DNA from: Patescibacteria group bacterium
GTDB lineage: Bacteria; Patescibacteriota; Minisyncoccia; Minisyncoccales; Staskawiczbacteraceae
Length of the DNA: 64,000 nucleotides
Direction of reading: 5' to 3'
Assembly: GCA_038065715.1 (NCBI GenBank)
Contig: JBBTQL010000011.1
Span: 2,509 to 66,508, forward strand
The notes beneath the pieces were generated by a model that was not told where the DNA came from, did no database searches, and was given only the letters and a program-made list of their open reading frames with translations. Below are positions 8,806 through 17,045 of this stretch, piece by piece (position 1 is the first letter of the stretch; each line of letters opens with the position of its first letter). A program made the position numbers and the translations under genes.

Positions 8806-10299
8806 TTAAAAATATTTTTCTAAGAACGGTATTTTAATGTTTTTTAATTTTTCAAATCCAAAAGGAGCTAAACAAAAAATAGATATAAAAGCAGGAATTC
8901 TAATTCTTGTTGTAATGCCAAAATTTGCCAAATATACAGAAAGAGATGCCAAGACCAAAAAACTGAAAAAAAACAGAATAAATGTGTACGCGGGTTTTAG
9001 ATTTTTTATTCCTTTTATTGCAAAGAAAAGGGCAAAATACCAAAGTACTACTTCAGGCAAAATAAGAAGATGCCTTAAATATCTCATTTGCCAAGGGAAA
9101 GGGCCAAAAGAAGTATATATAAAGGATATTACAGAATTTTTCAAGAATTTAAAAGGGTTGTCAAAACCTGTTTCAACTTCTATAGAAGACCCCCTCCCTC
9201 TTTTTGTAACAGGCTCTGTTGTTGTTGAAGGTTTTTCTGGCGCAGGAGTTTCAACTACAACAGAGGGTTTTGTTGATGCAGGAGTTTCAATATTAGACGG
9301 AGTTTCGTCATATACGGGAAATCCCGTGGTTGGAGAAATTTTTGGGTTAGGAATAGAAATTTTTTCCCTATAATAAGTAATAGATTTTACATTTATAAAA
9401 GCCTTCAAAAAATTAATGCCGTAATACCCTTGGCCTGAAAAAATTTGCGGTAAAAATCCTAAAATTATTATTAATAAAAAGGCTGAAAGAAACCGCTTTT
9501 TAAAATTTAAACTCGAAAATAAAAGCCAGCTGGCAATAAATGTTAAAATCAACGCAAAACCAATATAAACCCGTAAATTCATAAGAGCTCCCAAAATAAT
9601 ATAAAAAAATATAAAGTTGCCCCAGGAAAATATTTTAAGTAATTTTATTATTAAAAGCAAAATAATTGAACACAATAAAGCCACCAAAGCGTCTTTCCCA
9701 AGCAATCCTCCAAAAAAAATCAAACTGGGATAAATACCCGCCATTAAGCCAGCAAAAAAACCTTGTTTTTCTGATCCGCCAATTTGCATAACAATTAAAT
9801 AAACAAAAACAGCTAAAAGGGCTATCAAAAAAGAGTTGAACATCTGGCCTATAAGCATTCCGGGCATTATCAGGGCATAAATGTATCCAACAATAACAAA
9901 GTAATGGTTTTCAATATCTAGGCCTTGTAAAGAAAAATTCCCGCGGCTTATTCTTTCTGAAATTTCCTGTCCCAATGAATTATATGTTGAGAAATCACCA
10001 GCTCCCCCTGAAAAAGGTTGAAAATGCGCGTAATAGAAGAATAAAACTGCTACAAGTTGAATAAACAAAACAGCTAAAAAAAGTATGTATATTGCTTTAG
10101 TTTTATATCCTATTTTCTTGAATATAAAAAAAGTAATTGCTGTTAAAAATACAATAAAAATAGCTCCAATAGCCAAAACTCTGTCAAAAAGAGAAATCAA
10201 AAACAAAAACAAGCAGCTTATAATTAAAGTTGAAAGAACCGGAGAAGAATAAAGGCTAGCTTTTATTTTACGCAAAAACAAACCGATTTTGTTTATCAT
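8806..10299 (-). CDS. polytopic membrane protein (candidate GT-C-type transferase or polymerase)
   Basis: 497 aa. It has many hydrophobic segments by eye and an internal Pro/Thr/Glu-rich loop, ETPSNIETPASTKPSVVVETPAPEKPSTTTEP. I could not resolve the family. Confidence 0.5.
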   Translation of the reverse strand: MINKIGLFLRKIKASLYSSPVLSTLIISCLFLFLISLFDRVLAIGAIFIVFLTAITFFIFKKIGYKTKAIYILFLAVLFIQLVAVLFFYYAHFQPFSGGAGDFSTYNSLGQEISERISRGNFSLQGLDIENHYFVIVGYIYALIMPGMLIGQMFNSFLIALLAVFVYLIVMQIGGSEKQGFFAGLMAGIYPSLIFFGGLLGKDALVALLCSIILLLIIKLLKIFSWGNFIFFYIILGALMNLRVYIGFALILTFIASWLLFSSLNFKKRFLSAFLLIIILGFLPQIFSGQGYYGINFLKAFINVKSITYYREKISIPNPKISPTTGFPVYDETPSNIETPASTKPSVVVETPAPEKPSTTTEPVTKRGRGSSIEVETGFDNPFKFLKNSVISFIYTSFGPFPWQMRYLRHLLILPEVVLWYFALFFAIKGIKNLKPAYTFILFFFSFLVLASLSVYLANFGITTRIRIPAFISIFCLAPFGFEKLKNIKIPFLEKYF

Positions 10300-11198
10300 A
10301 ATTTAAAATAATCTTCAATTCCTTTTTTTATATCATATTCAGGATAATATCCCAAAAATTCTCTTGTTTCTGTTAAATCGGCTTCTGTATTCTCTTGATA
10401 GTGCTGATATGGGTTATCAATATACTCTGGCTCAAGGTTTGTTTTTAAAACTTTATTTAAATTTTCAATTATTTGGTTAAATGAAGTTGCCTTTCCCGCG
10501 CCAATATTAAAAATTCCGCTTTTTTGGCATTCCATTGCCAGCATATTGGCCATTACAACATCTTTTATATAAACCTGATCTCTTTTTTGCTCGCCATATT
10601 TAAATATTTTCGGTCTTTTGCCCTCTTTCATCTGCAAATATAACTGCCAAATCATGCTTGCCATTTTTCCTTTAAATTTTTCTCCGGGGCCGTAAACATT
10701 AAAATAGCGGAGTCCGATAATAGGCAGATTGCTAAAATTTTCGCGGGCTATTTTATCTGCCTCTAATTTTGAAACGCCATATATATTGGCAGGGACTTCG
10801 TTTTTTCCAACAATCATAGGGGGCATAGAATGGCCGTAAGTTGCAGCCGAAGACGCATAAATTAACTTAGCTCCGCAGATTTTGGCAAAATTTAAAACAT
10901 TTATAAAACCGACAACATTGTTAAACATCATTTTTTCTTCGTCAAAAACAGTTGTGTCTGTAATTGCCGCCTGATGAAAAATAATATCCAGTTTGCCAAA
11001 ATGCTTGCTAATATCTATTTCAGCAATATTCGCGCAAATAATTTCACCTTTAAACCCTGATAAATTATCAGCATTTCCTGAAGAAAAATTATCAACAATA
11101 TAATATTTATTGTTTGGATATTTTTCCTGAAGGGTTTTAACTAAATTTGACCCAATAAATCCGGCCCCTCCTGTTATTAAAATCTTTTTATTTTCCAT
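10296..11198 (-). CDS. hldD: ADP-L-glycero-D-manno-heptose 6-epimerase
   Basis: 300 aa. It is colinear with E. coli HldD/RfaD as I recall it: GGAGFIGSN, YASSAATYG, YGVSKLEAD, GLRYFNVYGPGEKFKGKMASM, GEQKRDQVYIKDV and IFNIGAGKATSFN. Confidence 0.85.
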   Translation of the reverse strand: MENKKILITGGAGFIGSNLVKTLQEKYPNNKYYIVDNFSSGNADNLSGFKGEIICANIAEIDISKHFGKLDIIFHQAAITDTTVFDEEKMMFNNVVGFINVLNFAKICGAKLIYASSAATYGHSMPPMIVGKNEVPANIYGVSKLEADKIARENFSNLPIIGLRYFNVYGPGEKFKGKMASMIWQLYLQMKEGKRPKIFKYGEQKRDQVYIKDVVMANMLAMECQKSGIFNIGAGKATSFNQIIENLNKVLKTNLEPEYIDNPYQHYQENTEADLTETREFLGYYPEYDIKKGIEDYFKL

Positions 11199-11200
11199 TT

Positions 11201-12211
11201 CTATTTTGAATCGCTTAAAATAATGTTTACTGCTTCTAAAATATTTTTTGCGTAATAATTCGGTTCTAACTTATATTTTTCATCCATTTTTTTGTCAATT
11301 TTTATTGTTTTCACATTTGCCTCTCTGCCAGCCAACACATCTGCAGAACCATCTCCAATAAACCAGCTTTTGCTTAAATTTAATCCAAAATCTTGGCCAG
11401 CCTGCAAAAGCATGCCGGGTTTTGGTTTTCTGCAAGAACAATTGTCATCTGGCCCATGAGGGCAATAATAAATTTTGTCAATTCTAATGCCTTTTTTATT
11501 AAACTCTTCAACCATCCATTTGTGAAGCTTTTTCATTTGGAGTTCTGTATAATAACCTCGGGCAATTCCTGACTGATTTGTTACAACAATAATTTTATAA
11601 TCGGTTTTTGAAAGTTTTTTTAAAGCAGTAATTGTTTCAGGAAATAATTTAAAATCATCTTTTTTATGGGTATATTCTGGCTCGTTTATATTTATGGTTC
11701 CATCGCGGTCTAAAAATACTGCCTTTACGTTTTGCTTTAAATTTTTATCTGCAGTTTTTTCTATTAAACTGCTGGTTGAAAAGCCTTTCAGCCATTTTAA
11801 AATATGTATTCTGCCTCCCCCTTCTTCAACAACCTGCCTTTCAATGCAATTTTTTCCCCAGTCAGACCCATTGCAATGCACATCTGGTTTTATTTTTTTT
11901 AAAATTTCTTTTGGGTTGATTTCATTAAAATTAACCACATAATCAACATAATTTACAGCAGACAAAACTTCTGCTCTGTATTTTTCTGAATTAATTGGGT
12001 GTCCTGGTCCCTTATAAAGGTTAATAGAGCTGTCGCTGTTTAAAAGAACAGCCAAAACATCTCCCTGTTTTTTTGCCTCTTCTAACGATTTAATATGCCC
12101 CAAATGCAATATATCAAAACTGCCGTTATAAGTAACAATTTTTTTCCCCTGTTTTTTGAGGGTTTCAACAATGTCAATTATTTCTTCCTGGCTTTTAATC
12201 TTTAAATTCAT
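11201..12211 (-). CDS. hldC-gmhB: bifunctional D-beta-D-heptose 1-phosphate adenylyltransferase / D,D-heptose 1,7-bisphosphate phosphatase
   Basis: 336 aa. The N-half matches HldE domain II (NGSFDILHLGHI, NSDSS). The C-half matches GmhB (VFLDRDGTIN, VVTNQSGIARG, CSCRKPKPGM, IGDGSAD). Confidence 0.85.
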   Translation of the reverse strand: MNLKIKSQEEIIDIVETLKKQGKKIVTYNGSFDILHLGHIKSLEEAKKQGDVLAVLLNSDSSINLYKGPGHPINSEKYRAEVLSAVNYVDYVVNFNEINPKEILKKIKPDVHCNGSDWGKNCIERQVVEEGGGRIHILKWLKGFSTSSLIEKTADKNLKQNVKAVFLDRDGTININEPEYTHKKDDFKLFPETITALKKLSKTDYKIIVVTNQSGIARGYYTELQMKKLHKWMVEEFNKKGIRIDKIYYCPHGPDDNCSCRKPKPGMLLQAGQDFGLNLSKSWFIGDGSADVLAGREANVKTIKIDKKMDEKYKLEPNYYAKNILEAVNIILSDSK

Positions 12212-12248
12212 TGTTCTTTTTTAACATAATTCTTTATATTTTTAAATA

Positions 12249-12277
12249 TTGACATTATTAAACATAAATGATAATAT
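12249..12277 (+). promoter_or_regulatory. candidate sigma70-type promoter for the plus-strand Nudix-like gene
   Basis: TTGACA (12249-12254), a 17-nt spacer, then TAATAT (12272-12277), about 90 nt upstream of the ATG at 12368. The region is AT-rich, so a chance match is possible. Confidence 0.3.
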
Positions 12278-12367
12278 AAAAAATCTTGAACATTGACAAA
12301 ATAGTTGTTATTCGCAAGCGTTTGCGAGCAGCTGTTATTGGATTTGTTCGTTTTTGGAGAAAGTGCC

Positions 12368-13096
12368 ATGCGCAAAAGCATTGTTGTAGGCCCTGAACAA
12401 TTGATTGGCAAAGGCGGCTGGGTCAGTTTATACGGTCTTAATACCGCCGGAGGACGCCGCGAGATATTAATGCGCAACAATGGGCGCTTTAAGGCGGCAA
12501 AATGCCTGGTTTTGTACGTTGACAAAGAAGTATGGAAAGAATCAGGCGCTGAAAGCAGCAGCGACCTGCCAACTTTTTTGGCAAATCTGCGCCGAATTGG
12601 CCTGCCGTATTTTTCGGTATTCTTTTTGGCGGCAGACAGACCGTGCACATATCCTGAATCACAGGATCTTGCAGGCCTGACTGAAAACTACCAACTGGAA
12701 ATACCCGGCGGAGTTGCTGATGCAGTTGACGAAGACGGGATTGCCACAGGTTTGCGGGAAGCCTGCGAAGAGTACGGCTGTGCGGCCACAGACGTCGTGA
12801 TGACTGCGCCTCTGGTGACTGGTGTTTATGCAGCCAACGATGCCGGCGGACAAGTGGAATTTTATTCAACTTGCGCCGCTGTTGTCACAAAAAAACCAGA
12901 ACCGCCAAAAAAGAAAAAGGGTGAAGGATACCGCGAAGGCATTATTCCAGAAAAATGCGTGTTAGTGCCCCTCTTGGAAGCTGAAAACTTCCTAATGGAA
13001 CAGGGCAGACAAGGCATTGCTCTGGAATGGCTTGCTCTTGCTTCGCTTTTCCACCTTGGTCTTGAACTGCTCGGCGGATGGAAAGAGTTGACGTAG
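12368..13096 (+). CDS. Nudix-family hydrolase-like protein (ADP-sugar pyrophosphatase-like), compositionally foreign
   Basis: This is the only plus-strand gene in the window. The ATG at 12368 has GGAGA 7 nt upstream (the track ORF starts at TTG 12305), giving 242 aa. It has a near-canonical Nudix box, EIPGGVADAVDEDGIATGLREACEEYGC (E-x7-REACEEYG). Lines I counted are 50% (12421-12480) and 58% (12721-12780) G+C, against 30% in the neighbouring gene (11941-12000). Confidence 0.6.
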   Translation: MRKSIVVGPEQLIGKGGWVSLYGLNTAGGRREILMRNNGRFKAAKCLVLYVDKEVWKESGAESSSDLPTFLANLRRIGLPYFSVFFLAADRPCTYPESQDLAGLTENYQLEIPGGVADAVDEDGIATGLREACEEYGCAATDVVMTAPLVTGVYAANDAGGQVEFYSTCAAVVTKKPEPPKKKKGEGYREGIIPEKCVLVPLLEAENFLMEQGRQGIALEWLALASLFHLGLELLGGWKELT

Positions 13097-13124
13097 CAAC
13101 AAGCGCATTGTTGCAGAATCCATA

Positions 13125-13158
13125 GCCTGCCATAAACTCCATATTGGCGGGCTTTTTT
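13125..13158 (+). terminator. rho-independent terminator of the plus-strand gene
   Basis: GCCTGCC (13125-13131) pairs with GGCGGGC (13146-13152), with one G-U pair and a 14-nt loop, and is followed by TTTTTT (13153-13158). A second perfect 7-bp hairpin, GCAACAA-gcgca-TTGTTGC, lies at 13096-13114. Confidence 0.55.
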
Positions 13159-13160
13159 AT

Positions 13161-14117
13161 TTAACTCTCTAAATACTGCGTTAGTTCTTTTGGGGTAATT
13201 GTTGCAGTGCCTAATTTTCCAACCACAATGCCGGCTGCATGGTTTGCAATTATAGACGCCTGCTCTAAATCAGCTCCTGCGGCTAAAGCTAAAGTAGCAA
13301 CAGCCACAACAGTGTCTCCCGCCCCGCTTACGTCAAACACTTCTCTTGCCGTGGCAGAAAAATGTTTAATTTTATTGTTCTCAAAAAGAGTAACTCCTTC
13401 AGCTCCACGAGTAAGCAAAACACTACAATTTAACTGTTTTTGAATTATTTTTCCAGCTTCATTTATGTCGTTAACTCCGGCCATTGCCAAAGATTCTTTT
13501 TGGTTAGGGCTTAAAAGAGTGGCATTTTTAAAAAACGATGCGTGTTTTGGCTTTACGTCGCATATAATCGGTTTTTTATATTTTACAGCTAAATTAACTA
13601 CGTTTTCTGCAAAATTTTTAGTAATAATGCCTTTGGCATAATCTGAAACAACAATAGCATCCCAATCTTTAATATGCAGAGAGATAAATTCCAATAACTT
13701 TTTTTCAATATTGCTGTTTATATATTGGGCATTTTCTTTATCCACCCTTACAATTTGCTGGGTTCTGGCAATAATTCTTATTTTTTGGGTTGTTGGCTTA
13801 TCAGTATTTTGTAAAACTCCTTCAGTTTTAATGCCTAATTTTTCCAGTTCTGAAAGCAAAATTTTTCCAGCAGAATCTTTTCCTGCCAATCCAACAACAA
13901 AAACCTTGCCGCCCAAAGCAGCAATATTGGCAGCAGTATTCCCAGCTCCCCCTGGCATAAAGCTTTCTTTTGCAGCTAAAACTATGGGAACTGGCGCTTC
14001 AGGCGAAATTCTATCAACATCTCCCCATATAAAATGGTCTAACATTAAGTCGCCTATAACGCCAATTTTTTTTCCTTTAAAATTGTTTACTATTTTAATT
14101 AGTTTGTCTTTTTCCAT
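13161..14117 (-). CDS. hldA: D-beta-D-heptose 7-phosphate kinase (PfkB family; HldE domain I equivalent)
   Basis: 318 aa. It is colinear with the N-terminal half of E. coli HldE as I recall it: GDLMLDHFIWGDVDRISPEAPVPIV, PGGAGN, SDYAKG, DVSGAGDTVVA and AAGIVVGKLGTATI. Confidence 0.85.
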   Translation of the reverse strand: MEKDKLIKIVNNFKGKKIGVIGDLMLDHFIWGDVDRISPEAPVPIVLAAKESFMPGGAGNTAANIAALGGKVFVVGLAGKDSAGKILLSELEKLGIKTEGVLQNTDKPTTQKIRIIARTQQIVRVDKENAQYINSNIEKKLLEFISLHIKDWDAIVVSDYAKGIITKNFAENVVNLAVKYKKPIICDVKPKHASFFKNATLLSPNQKESLAMAGVNDINEAGKIIQKQLNCSVLLTRGAEGVTLFENNKIKHFSATAREVFDVSGAGDTVVAVATLALAAGADLEQASIIANHAAGIVVGKLGTATITPKELTQYLES

Positions 14118-14124
14118 AATAATT

Positions 14125-14493
14125 TTAGTCGCCTTTAATTATGCGTTTTGAATCTTCTTCAAAATGCGTGGTTGAAAATTCAAAAAGATTTGAATCTTCT
14201 AAGGCTGTCATTTGATGCCTTAAACCTGTTGGTATTTCAAGGCAGTCGCCTGGCAAAAATGTATAAACATTTGCCTTTGAAATATCGTCTTCCCAGCCTG
14301 CCTTTATTTCTAGTTTGCCTGAAAAAAGATAAAAAGTTTCATGTTTTTTTTCATGGTAATGAAAACTGCACTTTTTTCCTTTTTCAAAAAATAATAATTT
14401 GCCGCAATATTCCCTGTTGCTTATCCAGTCTTCAAACCCCCAGCCTTTTAAATGTTTTTCTGGCTTATACGGCTTTGGTATTTCTTTATCCAT
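14125..14493 (-). CDS. cupin-domain protein, type II phosphomannose-isomerase-like
   Basis: 122 aa. The pattern WGFEDW..., CSFHYHEKKHETFYLFSGK, PGDCLEIPTGLRHQ and a C-terminal EEDSKRI resembles the PMI/ManC-type cupin. Confidence 0.7.
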   Translation of the reverse strand: MDKEIPKPYKPEKHLKGWGFEDWISNREYCGKLLFFEKGKKCSFHYHEKKHETFYLFSGKLEIKAGWEDDISKANVYTFLPGDCLEIPTGLRHQMTALEDSNLFEFSTTHFEEDSKRIIKGD

Positions 14494-15535
14494 GTTTTAA
14501 AATTTCGTTAATTTTATTAAAAACTATATCTGGGGTTATTTTTATTAAACAGCTATGTTTTCTGCTAAAATCATACTTTGGCGTGAAAACATCATGATAT
14601 TGATAACTGCACTTTTCTGAAATTATATGCGCATTTTTGCCAAAAGGGCCTGTCCTTTCTGCAATAGTAGGCCCAAAAATAACAATTAAATCGGTATTTG
14701 TTGTAGCAGCAATATGGCAAAGCCCGGTATCTGAAGAAATAAATATTCTGCATTTATCAATTAACGAGGCAACTTCTGAAAGAGAAAACCCTATTACCGA
14801 TTCAGCTGACCCATTTAGCTCGTTTTGCATTTTAAAACAAATATCTTTTTCAAAAGCAGAACCGAAAAGAAGAATGAACGCATCAGGATAACTGCCTAAA
14901 ATTTTTTTGCCCAGTTCTTTGAAATTTTCATTTGGCCATAATTTAAACTGCTGCTTTGTGCCAGACCCTATTGAAAAGCCTATTAAAGTTTTATTTTCTA
15001 AATTACTTTTTTTTATAAATTCATCTGCAAATTTTTTGTCATTATCTGCAATCTCAAAAAATAAATCTGGCGCAAGACTGTCTGTTTTAATTCCTAAAGA
15101 TTTTAATATGTTTAAATTTGCCTCTGTTTTATGCTGATTTCCGTTTAATTTTACTTGGTGATTATAAAAATTTAATTTAAATTTTCTATATTCCCCAGCT
15201 CTTTCTTTTCCGCCTATTAATAAAGCTAAAACACTCCCATTAAGCTGGCCCACGCCATTTGCCACAAAAACCAAGTCGTATTTTTCTTTTCTAAGATTTA
15301 AAATTAATCTTATTTTATCTAAAAAATTATTTTTCTTAAAATTAAAAAAGAAAACTTTATTTATAATTTTAGACTCCTGAAAAATTCCTGTTTTGCCAGT
15401 AGCGCAGCTGACAAGCATATCTATTAAACTTTCAGAAAAATTATTTTTTAAAACTTTTAGAGCAGGCGAAAACATTATTAAGTCTCCAATTCCCCCTGGA
15501 TTTATTATTAAAATTTTTTTAAAATCATAAGCCAT
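14486..15535 (-). CDS. glycosyltransferase family 9 (heptosyltransferase-like)
   Basis: 349 aa. It has ILIINPGGIGDLIMFSPALKVLK at the N-terminus and SSDTGLCHIAA near the C-terminus, the typical RfaF/WaaC-type pattern. Confidence 0.8.
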   Translation of the reverse strand: MAYDFKKILIINPGGIGDLIMFSPALKVLKNNFSESLIDMLVSCATGKTGIFQESKIINKVFFFNFKKNNFLDKIRLILNLRKEKYDLVFVANGVGQLNGSVLALLIGGKERAGEYRKFKLNFYNHQVKLNGNQHKTEANLNILKSLGIKTDSLAPDLFFEIADNDKKFADEFIKKSNLENKTLIGFSIGSGTKQQFKLWPNENFKELGKKILGSYPDAFILLFGSAFEKDICFKMQNELNGSAESVIGFSLSEVASLIDKCRIFISSDTGLCHIAATTNTDLIVIFGPTIAERTGPFGKNAHIISEKCSYQYHDVFTPKYDFSRKHSCLIKITPDIVFNKINEILKHG

Positions 15536-15538
15536 CTT

Positions 15539-16258
15539 TTACTTTTTTAAATTAGCTGATTTAAGTATTTCTCTGCTTTCTTCTCCGTAATTAAATAATA
15601 AATCTATTGCTGACATATTATAAATAAAAGGCTCAAACTGCTGATTATAAATAGGGTGCTTAAAATCTGAAAAAATGTGGTTTAATCCTTGTTTTTTAAA
15701 TTTTTCCTCTTCAACATAATGCTCGCCTCCTTCAGCTGTTAAACCGGGCCCTGACAAATGGGTATCAGCTTTCATTGCTTTGCACAAATTTATTATCATA
15801 TCGGTTTTCTGGCCTTTAATATCGTAATCAGAGCTTTTATAAATAGGACTTTGAATATTTAATTCTTTAAATAAATAAATAATAATTGTTTCATTCAAGT
15901 CTGCTAAATATTCCCATTTTTTTAAATATGTTTTTTCAAAAAAATCTTTGTATTTATTGAAAAAAGGCGCACCCTTATATGCAAAATAAATGCTTTTCCA
16001 ATGTTTTTTTGCCCAATATCTGGAATTATCTATTTTAACCTCATTTATTTTTTGAGATGTTTTGTTTTTTGTGGCAACAGGAATCGTAAGCCATGTCCAG
16101 CCGTCTTGACCAGGGGCAGTTCTGATTCTGTTTCTATTCTGAAAACCCTCTTTCTGGAACTGGACATGGTCAACAAAAATAAATTTATCGGCTTTTGACG
16201 CTTTGTAAAAGAACCCAAGATACGGCAAATATTCTGGCTGATGGGCAACAAGTATCAT
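15539..16258 (-). CDS. WbqC-like family protein
   Basis: 239 aa. The N-terminus VAHQPEYLPYLGFF...FVDHVQFQKEGFQNRNRI resembles the WbqC-like family as I remember it. A paralogue lies at 46940..47641. Confidence 0.7.
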   Translation of the reverse strand: MILVAHQPEYLPYLGFFYKASKADKFIFVDHVQFQKEGFQNRNRIRTAPGQDGWTWLTIPVATKNKTSQKINEVKIDNSRYWAKKHWKSIYFAYKGAPFFNKYKDFFEKTYLKKWEYLADLNETIIIYLFKELNIQSPIYKSSDYDIKGQKTDMIINLCKAMKADTHLSGPGLTAEGGEHYVEEEKFKKQGLNHIFSDFKHPIYNQQFEPFIYNMSAIDLLFNYGEESREILKSANLKK

Positions 16259-16259
16259 T

Positions 16260-17045
16260 TTATTGCGGTTTTTTAAAATAAACTCCTGTATAATCTATTT
16301 TAACTAATTCTGGACTTATCTTTTTCTCTATAAAAAACTCGTCTAGAGCCTTTTTAGCGCCCTCCCAATGGCCATAATCATCTAAAACAATGTATCCTCC
16401 GATTATAACATTATCGTACAAATTATCAAGGCAGCATTTTGTGGACTCATACCAGTCCCCATCCAGCCTTAAAATTGCAATTTTGCCAATTTTTTGCTTG
16501 GCTGAAGGCAATGTGTCCTGAAACCAACCTTTGCTAATTATAATGTTTTCTTTGTTTAATTTTAAAACTTTAAAAAACACTTCTTCTACGTCTTTTAGGG
16601 AGGCTACGCATTTATCAATTGTTTTTAACTTTCCCTCTGTTTTGTTTAATGCATAACTACTGGCTATTTCTCCGTCTTCTTTTGTGGGTTCTGGCAAGCC
16701 TTCAAAAGAATCAAAAAGCCATATTTTTCTGCCAGAACCAAATTTTTGCGCCATAAAAGCCATAACAGCTGCGCATCCGCCTTTCCAAACTCCGCATTCA
16801 GCAAAAACTCCCTCTGTTTTATTTTTTTCAACCATGTTTGCCAATTCATATACATTAGACAATCTTGCATAACCCACCATAGTAAAAGGATATACTTTTT
16901 TAAACAGCCACAGTTTTTCAAAATTAAAAAAATCTTTCAGCGGAATATTTTTTATAAATATCAGCTTTTTGGCGAGGCTTAATAAAATTTTATTTTTTCT
17001 GATTATATTTTTAATTTTCTCTGTCATTTGTTTAAAAATTCCCAT
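16260..17045 (-). CDS. TylF/MycF-family SAM-dependent O-methyltransferase
   Basis: 261 aa. It has FAECGVWKGGCA, LFDSFEGLP and LRLDGDWYESTK...GGYIVLDDYGHWEGAKKALDEF. Confidence 0.8.
   Translation of the reverse strand: MGIFKQMTEKIKNIIRKNKILLSLAKKLIFIKNIPLKDFFNFEKLWLFKKVYPFTMVGYARLSNVYELANMVEKNKTEGVFAECGVWKGGCAAVMAFMAQKFGSGRKIWLFDSFEGLPEPTKEDGEIASSYALNKTEGKLKTIDKCVASLKDVEEVFFKVLKLNKENIIISKGWFQDTLPSAKQKIGKIAILRLDGDWYESTKCCLDNLYDNVIIGGYIVLDDYGHWEGAKKALDEFFIEKKISPELVKIDYTGVYFKKPQ

Follow-up and report, generated by a model that had tools for sequence, protein, structure and literature searches.

A small cupin as a candidate sedoheptulose-7-phosphate isomerase in heptose operons of Patescibacteria and ocean viruses

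The heptose operon and its cupin

The window examined here is a 64,000-nucleotide stretch of a Patescibacteria group bacterium genome (assembly GCA_038065715.1, contig JBBTQL010000011.1, positions 2,509 to 66,508). Minus-strand heptose genes lie within a glycan-biosynthesis island of approximately 60 kb, and one of them, an open reading frame (ORF) at 14125-14493 with an ATG start, encodes a 122-aa cupin that is 100% identical to the NCBI protein MEK7658906.1 from a Patescibacteria metagenome-assembled genome (MAG). Based on sequence and gene context we predict, with slightly more confidence than doubt, that this cupin is a sedoheptulose-7-phosphate isomerase that replaces GmhA, the SIS-fold enzyme of the same pathway position. 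The features of the operon are as follows:

14486..15535, minus strand: GT9 glycosyltransferase, heptosyltransferase-like (PF01075, 103.6 bits)
14486..14493, minus strand: end of the GT9 gene and start of the cupin gene, overlapping by 8 nt (from coordinates and sequence)
14125..14493, minus strand: cupin, candidate sedoheptulose-7-phosphate isomerase (Cupin_2, 32 bits; phrog_7851, 163.7 bits; AlphaFold model)
14317..14379, minus strand: cupin motif 1, with His45, His47 and Glu52, and Lys50 in the HxHxxKxE signature (translation GKKCSFHYHEKKHETFYLFSG)
14215..14250, minus strand: cupin motif 2, with His93 as the fourth metal ligand (translation GDCLEIPTGLRH)
13161..14117, minus strand: HldA (TIGR02198, 363.1 bits against a cutoff of 345)
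12305..13096, plus strand: GC-rich ORF with a NUDIX-like box, on the opposite strand between hldA and hldC-gmhB
11201..12211, minus strand: HldC-like and GmhB fusion (PF01467 plus HAD domains)
10296..11198, minus strand: HldD, ADP-glyceromanno-heptose 6-epimerase (TIGR02197, 298 bits against a cutoff of 274.6)

The initial annotation described a heptose module of kinase, phosphatase, adenylyltransferase, epimerase and GT9 genes, with the cupin wedged between hldA and the GT9 gene and overlapping the latter by 8 nt. The ORF coordinates agree with this placement and curated models agree with the composition of the module. The GmhB half of the fusion protein (heptose-1,7-bisphosphate 7-phosphatase) scores 191.3 bits against NF006506, above the cutoff of 178, while the HldC half (heptose-1-phosphate adenylyltransferase) scores 152.9 bits against TIGR02199, below the cutoff of 181.5. 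For the GT9 ORF, NCBIfam heptosyltransferase models are below their cutoffs. In E. coli HldE the fusion partner of HldC is the kinase; here it is GmhB, and this fusion is kept throughout the Patescibacteria group. The cupin stop is 7 nt upstream of hldA, and the overlap at its other end, which is also present in loci L001, L096 and L101, suggests translational coupling with the GT9 gene.

Apart from the GmhA step, the operon encodes the whole ADP-L-glycero-beta-D-manno-heptose route. The initial annotation had found no SIS-domain GmhA, and direct searches bear this out: an E. coli GmhA probe (validated by a SIS_2 match of 105.7 bits) returned no match in the 64-kb window by phmmer or tblastn, and a hidden Markov model (HMM) built from 11 GmhA sequences, including those of Patescibacteria, returned nothing better than E = 0.05 in the same window. 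These negative searches confirm that GmhA is absent from the window. The absence rests on the direct probes, as the Pfam families tallied for the other 50 window proteins are the 25 most frequent only. The cupin itself has no sequence similarity to the GmhA proteins of E. coli, phage Cr30 or Patescibacteria, nor to the GmhA HMM.

The window protein is a canonical metallo-cupin. It matches cupin motif 1 (G-x5-H-x-H-x4-E-x6-G) exactly and motif 2 (G-x5-P-x-G-x2-H-x3-N) exactly through the histidine, the last asparagine being replaced by alanine. The motifs give a ligand set of His45, His47, Glu52 and His93, i.e., a 3-His-1-Glu site, and an AlphaFold model based on 32 homologues is an all-beta barrel (pLDDT 94.9). 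Across 32 diverse members of the family 31 alignment columns are invariant, comprising the metal ligands, two cysteines, K16, K32, K40, K50, R117 and a C-terminal G-D; H45, H47, K50, E52, G59, G82 and H93 are all among the invariant positions.

The initial annotation called this a cupin of the phosphomannose isomerase (PMI) type. The peptides it quoted (SFHYHEKKHETFY, PTGLRHQ and EEDSKRI) are all present in the 122-aa translation, but the family label is apt only in a loose sense: Cupin_2 is the sole Pfam family that the window protein matches at threshold (32 bits against a cutoff of 27.2), and it has no match to PF01050 (MannoseP_isomer, cutoff 23.6 bits) at E <= 0.1. PF01050 is matched weakly by 12 of the 32 aligned relatives (best E = 4.5e-4) and at approximately 24.8 bits by two fusion relatives. 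Lyx_isomer (PF07385) is matched by all 32 aligned members at E <= 0.1 (best 5e-5), by some fusion relatives at 23-27 bits, and by the window protein at 15.1 bits (cutoff 20.8) over profile positions 84-111 only. RmlC (PF00908) is matched neither by the window protein nor by any of the 32 members, and FdtA (PF05523) by one of them (E = 0.033). Membership of the WbuC family (TIGR04366) was rejected on the NCBIfam threshold, the score of 19 bits (E = 0.00098) falling below the cutoff of 42 bits.

A sequence search of the PDB found no close solved homologue. A profile search of the PDB aligned L-ribose isomerase and D-lyxose/D-mannose isomerase over the invariant stretch C-x-K...G-K-x-C-x-x-H-x-H-x-x-K-x-E (YCGK...GKxCSxHxHxxKxE). 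The only function-specific similarities of the family are to manno-type aldose-ketose isomerases (D-lyxose isomerase, L-ribose isomerase and PMI), and they are weak. These enzymes interconvert ketoses and manno-type (cis-2,3) aldoses via a metal-assisted cis-enediol, which is the chemistry that conversion of sedoheptulose 7-phosphate to D-glycero-D-manno-heptose 7-phosphate needs.

The family is large and highly conserved. A homologue search returned 619 proteins, the best 120 of which share at least 57% identity with the window protein, and a profile search of 1.84 billion representatives returned 2312 matches at E <= 1e-10. Its members carry the database names 'cupin domain-containing', 'mannose-6-phosphate isomerase-like' (JGI), 'putative nucleotidyltransferase' and 'cysteine dioxygenase' (PHROGs/RefSeq), the last two of which are mislabels. 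The name 'cysteine dioxygenase' appears to have been propagated from generic cupin similarity.

Genomic contexts in viruses and cells

We scanned viral contigs in IMG/VR three times, with 80 loci per scan centred on the cupin, on GmhA or on the short PfkB kinase. The numbers of loci carrying each gene were as follows:

Cupin-centred scan: heptose kinase 65, HldC-like transferase 60, HAD protein 61, GmhA 0, cupin 80 (by design)
GmhA-centred scan: HddA-like kinase 75, HldC-like transferase 35, HAD protein 13, GmhA 80 (by design), cupin 0
Short PfkB kinase-centred scan: kinase 80 (by design), HldC-like transferase 43, HAD protein 36, GmhA 0, cupin 39

The cupin and GmhA did not occur together in any of the 240 sampled viral loci. 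Kinase, HldC and HAD genes are found together in 54 of the 80 cupin-centred loci. Among the kinase-centred loci, the cupin is present in 32 of the 34 that have this full trio (GmhA in none), but in only 4 of the 35 without both HldC and HAD. These counts indicate that the conserved unit is a four-gene module of cupin, kinase, phosphatase and nucleotidyltransferase. The route from sedoheptulose 7-phosphate to nucleoside diphosphate (NDP)-heptose has four steps, including those of a kinase, a phosphatase and a nucleotidyltransferase (PMC11573728), and three genes of the module correspond to these three enzymes.

The same exclusion is seen in phage records. The cupin is present in 35 records, all from cyanophages or marine viruses and mostly complete T4-like cyanophage genomes (including S-CAM1, S-CAM3, S-SM2, S-SSM7, P-SSM2, P-SSM5, P-TIM68, Bellamy and S-T4). 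The GmhA probe matched 13 phage records, none of them among these 35. The probe does detect the GmhA of Caulobacter phage Cr30 (32% identical), whose heptose module consists of GmhA, heptose-7-phosphate kinase, glycosyltransferase and epimerase, with no cupin.

Beside the cyanophage cupin is a gene annotated as 'phosphoheptose isomerase' (phrog_1238), which encodes a small HAD-like protein of approximately 106 aa with a DIDGT motif (L089 8682-9002, S-CAM3 gp150; L090 7032-7343 and 8673-9002, S-SM2). We rejected it as a true isomerase based on its HAD DxDGT motif, its matches to capsule phosphatases (TIGR01689; PDB 9iqw and 1xpj) and its lack of similarity to GmhA; the name seems to be a misannotation that has spread between records. 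In papers on marine viromes, 'phosphoheptose isomerase [gmhA]' serves as a marker among auxiliary metabolic genes (PMC9238414, PMC7378029), and this marker may refer to the small HAD family.

In cellular genomes we clustered the neighbours of 88 cupin-centred loci, taking 10 kb on either side, and none of the 88 carries GmhA within this span. Group A consists of Patescibacteria and has the gene order of the window (GT9-cupin-HldA-HldC/GmhB-HldD). Group B consists of marine, viral, archaeal and actinobacterial loci, in which the cupin is accompanied by a short PfkB kinase (best NCBIfam match HldA), an HldC-like transferase of approximately 140 aa and an HAD-like protein of approximately 107 aa with a DxDGT motif and best matches to the same capsule phosphatases as the cyanophage protein (TIGR01689; PDB 9iqw and 1xpj). 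Some Group B loci add a split transketolase, an E1/transketolase-like protein, an FSA/transaldolase or an RpiB-HldC fusion. The co-location, in some loci, of enzymes that make sedoheptulose 7-phosphate (split transketolase and FSA/transaldolase) supports the proposed substrate. The partner kinase in L032 and L005 is instead an HddA-like GHMP kinase, and in L032 the cupin lies between this kinase and an HddC-like transferase, an arrangement that ties the cupin to both kinds of heptose-7-phosphate kinase. GmhA is absent from the window and from nearly all cupin heptose modules outside the clade of the window.

Two further sets of loci have unusual composition. A Pelagibacter-labelled TMED166 contig (L018 6177-10324) carries in one block an RpiB-HldC fusion, an HldA-like kinase, an AraD-like class II aldolase/epimerase, a second divergent cupin, an FSA/transaldolase, a small HAD protein and the family cupin; its RpiB domain is another possible candidate for a sugar-phosphate isomerase of the pathway. 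L023, L026 and L029, from MAGs labelled Planctomycetaceae and Euryarchaeota TMED, have an identical gene order in planctomycete and euryarchaeal bins, which agrees with what cyanophage heptose clusters contain, e.g., that of S-SM2; these contigs are probably viral or mis-binned.

Several homologues are fused to heptose enzymes. We identified fusions of the cupin to PfkB in either order (PfkB-cupin, P0314; cupin-PfkB, P0344), to HldC (P0267, P0289 and P0293), and a PfkB-HldC-cupin tridomain protein (P0411). The P0411 gene is two genes upstream of an HAD gene, with one unannotated 332-aa ORF between them, and no SIS gene was found on its contig. Tridomain heptose enzymes that combine isomerase, kinase and nucleotidyltransferase activities are reported from the work of Tang et al., as summarised in PMC11573728. 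If the cupin is an isomerase, P0411 would likewise unite three of the pathway's four steps in a single polypeptide, differing in that its extra domain is a cupin and is C-terminal. The isomerase domain of the enzymes of Tang et al. is presumably of the GmhA type. Four longer cupin proteins (P0268, P0291, P0277 and P0290) have N-terminal regions without a heptose-pathway domain and may have arisen from fused gene calls in phage contigs; Cys/His-rich (HNH-like) stretches can be made out by eye in P0268 and P0291, and P0290 matches a deoxynucleotide monophosphate kinase.

Operon variants and alternative functions

Replacement of GmhA by the cupin, as put forward in the initial annotation, is the best single explanation for these data because the cupin and GmhA alternate outside one clade, the cupin is fused to kinase and transferase domains, and its nearest functional relatives are manno-type aldose-ketose isomerases. 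The distribution of the two genes outside the clade of the window is a classic signature of non-orthologous displacement. Under the proposed mechanism, the cupin would be a cupin-fold analogue of the SIS-fold GmhA and would act as a divalent-metal aldose-ketose isomerase converting sedoheptulose 7-phosphate to D-glycero-D-manno-heptose 7-phosphate, which would then pass through HldA, GmhB, HldC and HldD to the GT9 transferase. His45, His47, Glu52 and His93 would hold the metal, whose polarisation of O1 and O2 in the open-chain form of the sugar would allow the proton shift via a cis-enediol that D-lyxose, L-ribose and phosphomannose isomerases use, and the invariant lysines and arginine (K16, K32, K40, K50 and R117) may bind the 7-phosphate.

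The inference of the initial annotation is nevertheless supported in part only, as several observations weigh against it. At least three close Patescibacteria relatives of the window encode both proteins, and for this clade replacement in its simple form is not supported. Scanning metagenome contigs with the HldA protein identified four loci, among them L092, which has both the cupin and GmhA. In L092/L098, L096 and L101/L102 the cupin (89%, 86% and 88% identical to that of the window, respectively) and a canonical SIS_2 GmhA are encoded in one operon, with the order GT9-cupin-HldA-HldC/GmhB-GmhA, followed by HldD in L092 and L096. Both genes of these loci are under purifying selection (cupin omega 0.06-0.12, GmhA omega 0.07-0.13, with dS near 1), and their GmhA retains the equivalents of His61 and His180. 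Purifying selection on both genes is not expected under simple redundancy.

L108/L109 also carry GmhA, on contigs that begin inside hldA, with the position of the cupin outside the contig. The DNA of L109 is 95% identical to positions 11220-13879 of the window and contains a gmhA gene of approximately 590 bp (L109 2859-3447) at the exact hldC-gmhB/hldD junction (11198-11220) that lacks it in the window and that is the site of gmhA in close relatives. The presence of gmhA in so similar an operon means that a gmhA could sit elsewhere in the genome from which the window derives. On the hldD side, L109 and the window are only 81% identical, and this drop points to a recombination mosaic between operon variants rather than a simple deletion. 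In a tree of HldC-GmhB, GmhA has a patchy distribution and the cupin is present in every locus that spans its position. That gmhA is repeatedly missing from operons which are identical in other respects and invariably retain the cupin is consistent with an isomerase function. In the clade of the window, the operon occurs as two variants that recombine, one with gmhA and one lacking it, and the window carries the cupin-only variant. An accession check of ten Patescibacteria GmhA homologues yielded one that is accessioned, MFH1575543.1 from a Nealsonbacteria MAG, which is not near MEK7658906.1.

Other adverse points are more general. We found no characterised family member and no cupin sedoheptulose-7-phosphate isomerase in the literature. 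The hosts of the phages may supply heptose 7-phosphate; a literature search for gmhA in Prochlorococcus returned nothing on a host GmhA. Some cupin copies in bacteria of the candidate phyla radiation (CPR) occur in unrelated contexts, e.g., with SecA or MurB. Finally, a Foldseek search of the PDB gave approximately 800 generic cupin matches with near-equal E-values, led by the cupin epimerase domain of CapF (TM-score 0.77-0.79) and followed at similar E-values by quercetinase, oxalate decarboxylase, D-lyxose isomerases, KdgF and Thermococcus PMIs; this ranking is non-discriminating as to function.

The co-occurrence of two selected genes would be accounted for if the cupin catalysed a separate, non-redundant heptose step while a GmhA, encoded in the operon, elsewhere in the genome or by the host, still made heptose 7-phosphate. 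We consider this unlikely, though it is the alternative that deserves most attention, and heptose epimerisation had also been offered as a second reading in the initial annotation. The step could be an isomerisation or epimerisation of heptose 7-phosphate (e.g., manno to gluco by way of the ketose) or, as in CapF, a metal-dependent epimerisation acting on an NDP-heptose keto intermediate made by the adjacent short-chain dehydrogenase/reductase (SDR). An SDR adjoins the cupin almost always (HldD in Patescibacteria, an HldD-like protein in 36 of the 80 viral loci, Gmd in Binatia), the CapF epimerase domain is the best Foldseek match, there is a weak match to the WbuC family, and the HldC-cupin and NUDIX-cupin fusions also fit an NDP-sugar substrate. 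A separate step would nevertheless require that hundreds of seemingly complete viral and cellular modules depend on a GmhA that was not seen, and the fusions of the cupin to a kinase without a transferase (P0314 and P0344) better fit consecutive early steps. The profile matches also favour the isomerase over an RmlC-type epimerase or an FdtA-type ketoisomerase (none and one of the 32 members, respectively, compared with all 32 for Lyx_isomer). Moreover, canonical GmhA clusters make heptose nucleotides without a cupin, as in the Patescibacteria GDP-heptose clusters HddC-HddA-GmhA-GmhB.

Group C of the cellular loci raises a different possibility. In these Binatia and delta-proteobacterial MAGs the cupin belongs to glycan clusters in which gmd (TIGR01472, 530 bits) lies directly downstream of it, and no heptose kinase is nearby; GT9 genes and HldE are sometimes found within 4-10 kb. 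The arrangement, in which the cupin gene is immediately upstream of that for GDP-mannose 4,6-dehydratase, recurs in dozens of MAGs (L033-L088, e.g., L054 9935-11392), with WecA-like GT4, carbamoyltransferase and GT1 genes as upstream neighbours. This pairing also counts against the proposed function, as a role in mannose-6-phosphate or GDP-sugar metabolism would explain it as well as a heptose role. The cupin could accordingly be a small PMI that converts fructose 6-phosphate to mannose 6-phosphate for GDP-mannose-derived sugars of the same glycan, its position in heptose operons being incidental. JGI names several members 'mannose-6-phosphate isomerase-like', the PF01050 matches described above (two fusion relatives reaching the cutoff) and a distant similarity to the Thermococcus cupin PMIs 7zvm and 7zvy point the same way, and a minority of viral loci have Gmd-like matches close to the cupin. 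We regard this as improbable. The dominant partners of the cupin, its fusions included, are heptose kinases (best matches HldA and HddA), the HAD phosphatase and the HldC-like transferase. Neither a phosphomannomutase nor a mannose-1-phosphate guanylyltransferase family is among the 25 most frequent Pfam families of the Binatia neighbourhoods, and neither enzyme was noted beside the window cupin, where the immediate neighbours only were annotated individually. A GDP-heptose 4,6-dehydratase is an equally good reading of the gmd-like neighbour.

The names given by PHROGs (phrog_7851, 163.7 bits) and, in cyanophages, RefSeq, together with the presence of quercetinase, oxalate decarboxylase and Bacillus subtilis cysteine dioxygenase among the generic structural matches, would favour a cysteine dioxygenase, another cupin oxygenase or a non-catalytic cupin, a reading that we hold to be very improbable given that Pfam CDO_I is matched at E <= 0.1 neither by the window protein nor in the families listed for the 32 members, that the genomic context is one of sugar-nucleotide and glycan genes, and that relatives are fused to sugar kinase and nucleotidyltransferase domains. 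Cysteine dioxygenases lack the motif 1 glutamate, whereas Glu52 is kept and invariant here; a cysteine dioxygenase was rejected on both motif and threshold grounds.

The plus-strand ORF at 12305-13096 has approximately 50% GC compared with 32% for the genome, within a GC-rich island at approximately 12400-13100. It carries a NUDIX-like box (LEIPGGVADAVDEDGIATGLREACEEYG) and has a weak NUDIX (CoA pyrophosphatase) match (E = 0.0017), with no Pfam match for the ORF and no Rfam match for the GC-rich insert. Members of its family occupy the equivalent position in L009 and L012, and L109 has a 263-aa opposite-strand gene in its hldA/hldC-gmhB interval, across which its DNA is 95% identical to the window. 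The ORF could encode an ADP-sugar hydrolase gained by transfer. A NUDIX-cupin fusion (P0367) is known from elsewhere. Following the GT9 gene (15539-17045, minus strand) are a WbqC-like gene and a TylF-type O-methyltransferase gene, and the 50 window proteins outside the operon include seven radical-SAM proteins (three with B12-binding domains), two NeuB homologues, four DegT-type aminotransferases and many methyltransferases, a glycan locus that is unusually elaborate for a small CPR genome.

Comparison with known enzymes and implications

As a sedoheptulose-7-phosphate isomerase, the cupin would share its reaction and its pathway position, upstream of HldA or HddA, with GmhA (PF13580, HAMAP MF_00067). 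The two proteins have no sequence similarity, GmhA being an SIS alpha/beta protein of approximately 190 aa and the cupin a beta-barrel of 122 aa, and they are mutually exclusive across viral heptose modules while co-occurring in some Patescibacteria operons. The D-lyxose/D-mannose (PF07385) and L-ribose isomerase cupins have the same fold, invariant stretch and HxHx4E...H metal site and fall in the top Foldseek group. They differ in acting on unphosphorylated sugars, in length (170-260 aa) and in their catabolic contexts, as opposed to the glycan biosynthesis context of the window cupin. Cupin-type PMIs (the type II C-terminal domain, PF01050, and Thermococcus 7zvm/7zvy) are also small metallo-cupins, and their reaction is the C6 analogue of the C7 reaction proposed here; the similarity is weak (E = 0.0026 to 7zvm) and the window family partners heptose enzymes, not ManB/ManC. 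Structurally, the closest match is the C-terminal cupin of CapF/Cap5F, a Zn-dependent C3-epimerase acting on a UDP-4-keto sugar, which, like the window cupin, has its place beside an SDR in cell-surface sugar synthesis. It is a domain of a bifunctional protein with a nucleotide-linked keto sugar substrate and is 18% identical to the window cupin.

Taken across the whole family, the proposal is that these cupins are a second, non-homologous sedoheptulose-7-phosphate isomerase and the standard entry enzyme for NDP-heptose in T4-like marine cyanophages and other ocean viruses, many CPR bacteria, and DPANN and other archaea, that the phage 'gmhA' is an HAD phosphatase, and that in Patescibacteria the two isomerases are exchanging within one operon by recombination. 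We hold this broader statement in even balance.

NDP-heptoses are building blocks of lipopolysaccharides, capsules and S-layer glycans and potent ALPK1 innate-immune agonists, and GmhA is regarded as the universal first step in their synthesis and as a drug target. If the proposal is true, an established reaction of an established pathway would gain a new, non-homologous enzyme family with a wide distribution among ocean viruses, CPR bacteria and archaea. The four-enzyme cyanophage heptose module would then be complete, and two widespread annotations would be corrected ('cysteine dioxygenase' for the cupin and 'phosphoheptose isomerase/gmhA' for the small HAD protein). The operon variants would represent a textbook non-orthologous displacement observed mid-process. 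Genome-based prediction of heptose capacity would change as well, and an organism or virus lacking GmhA would cease to count as a non-producer.

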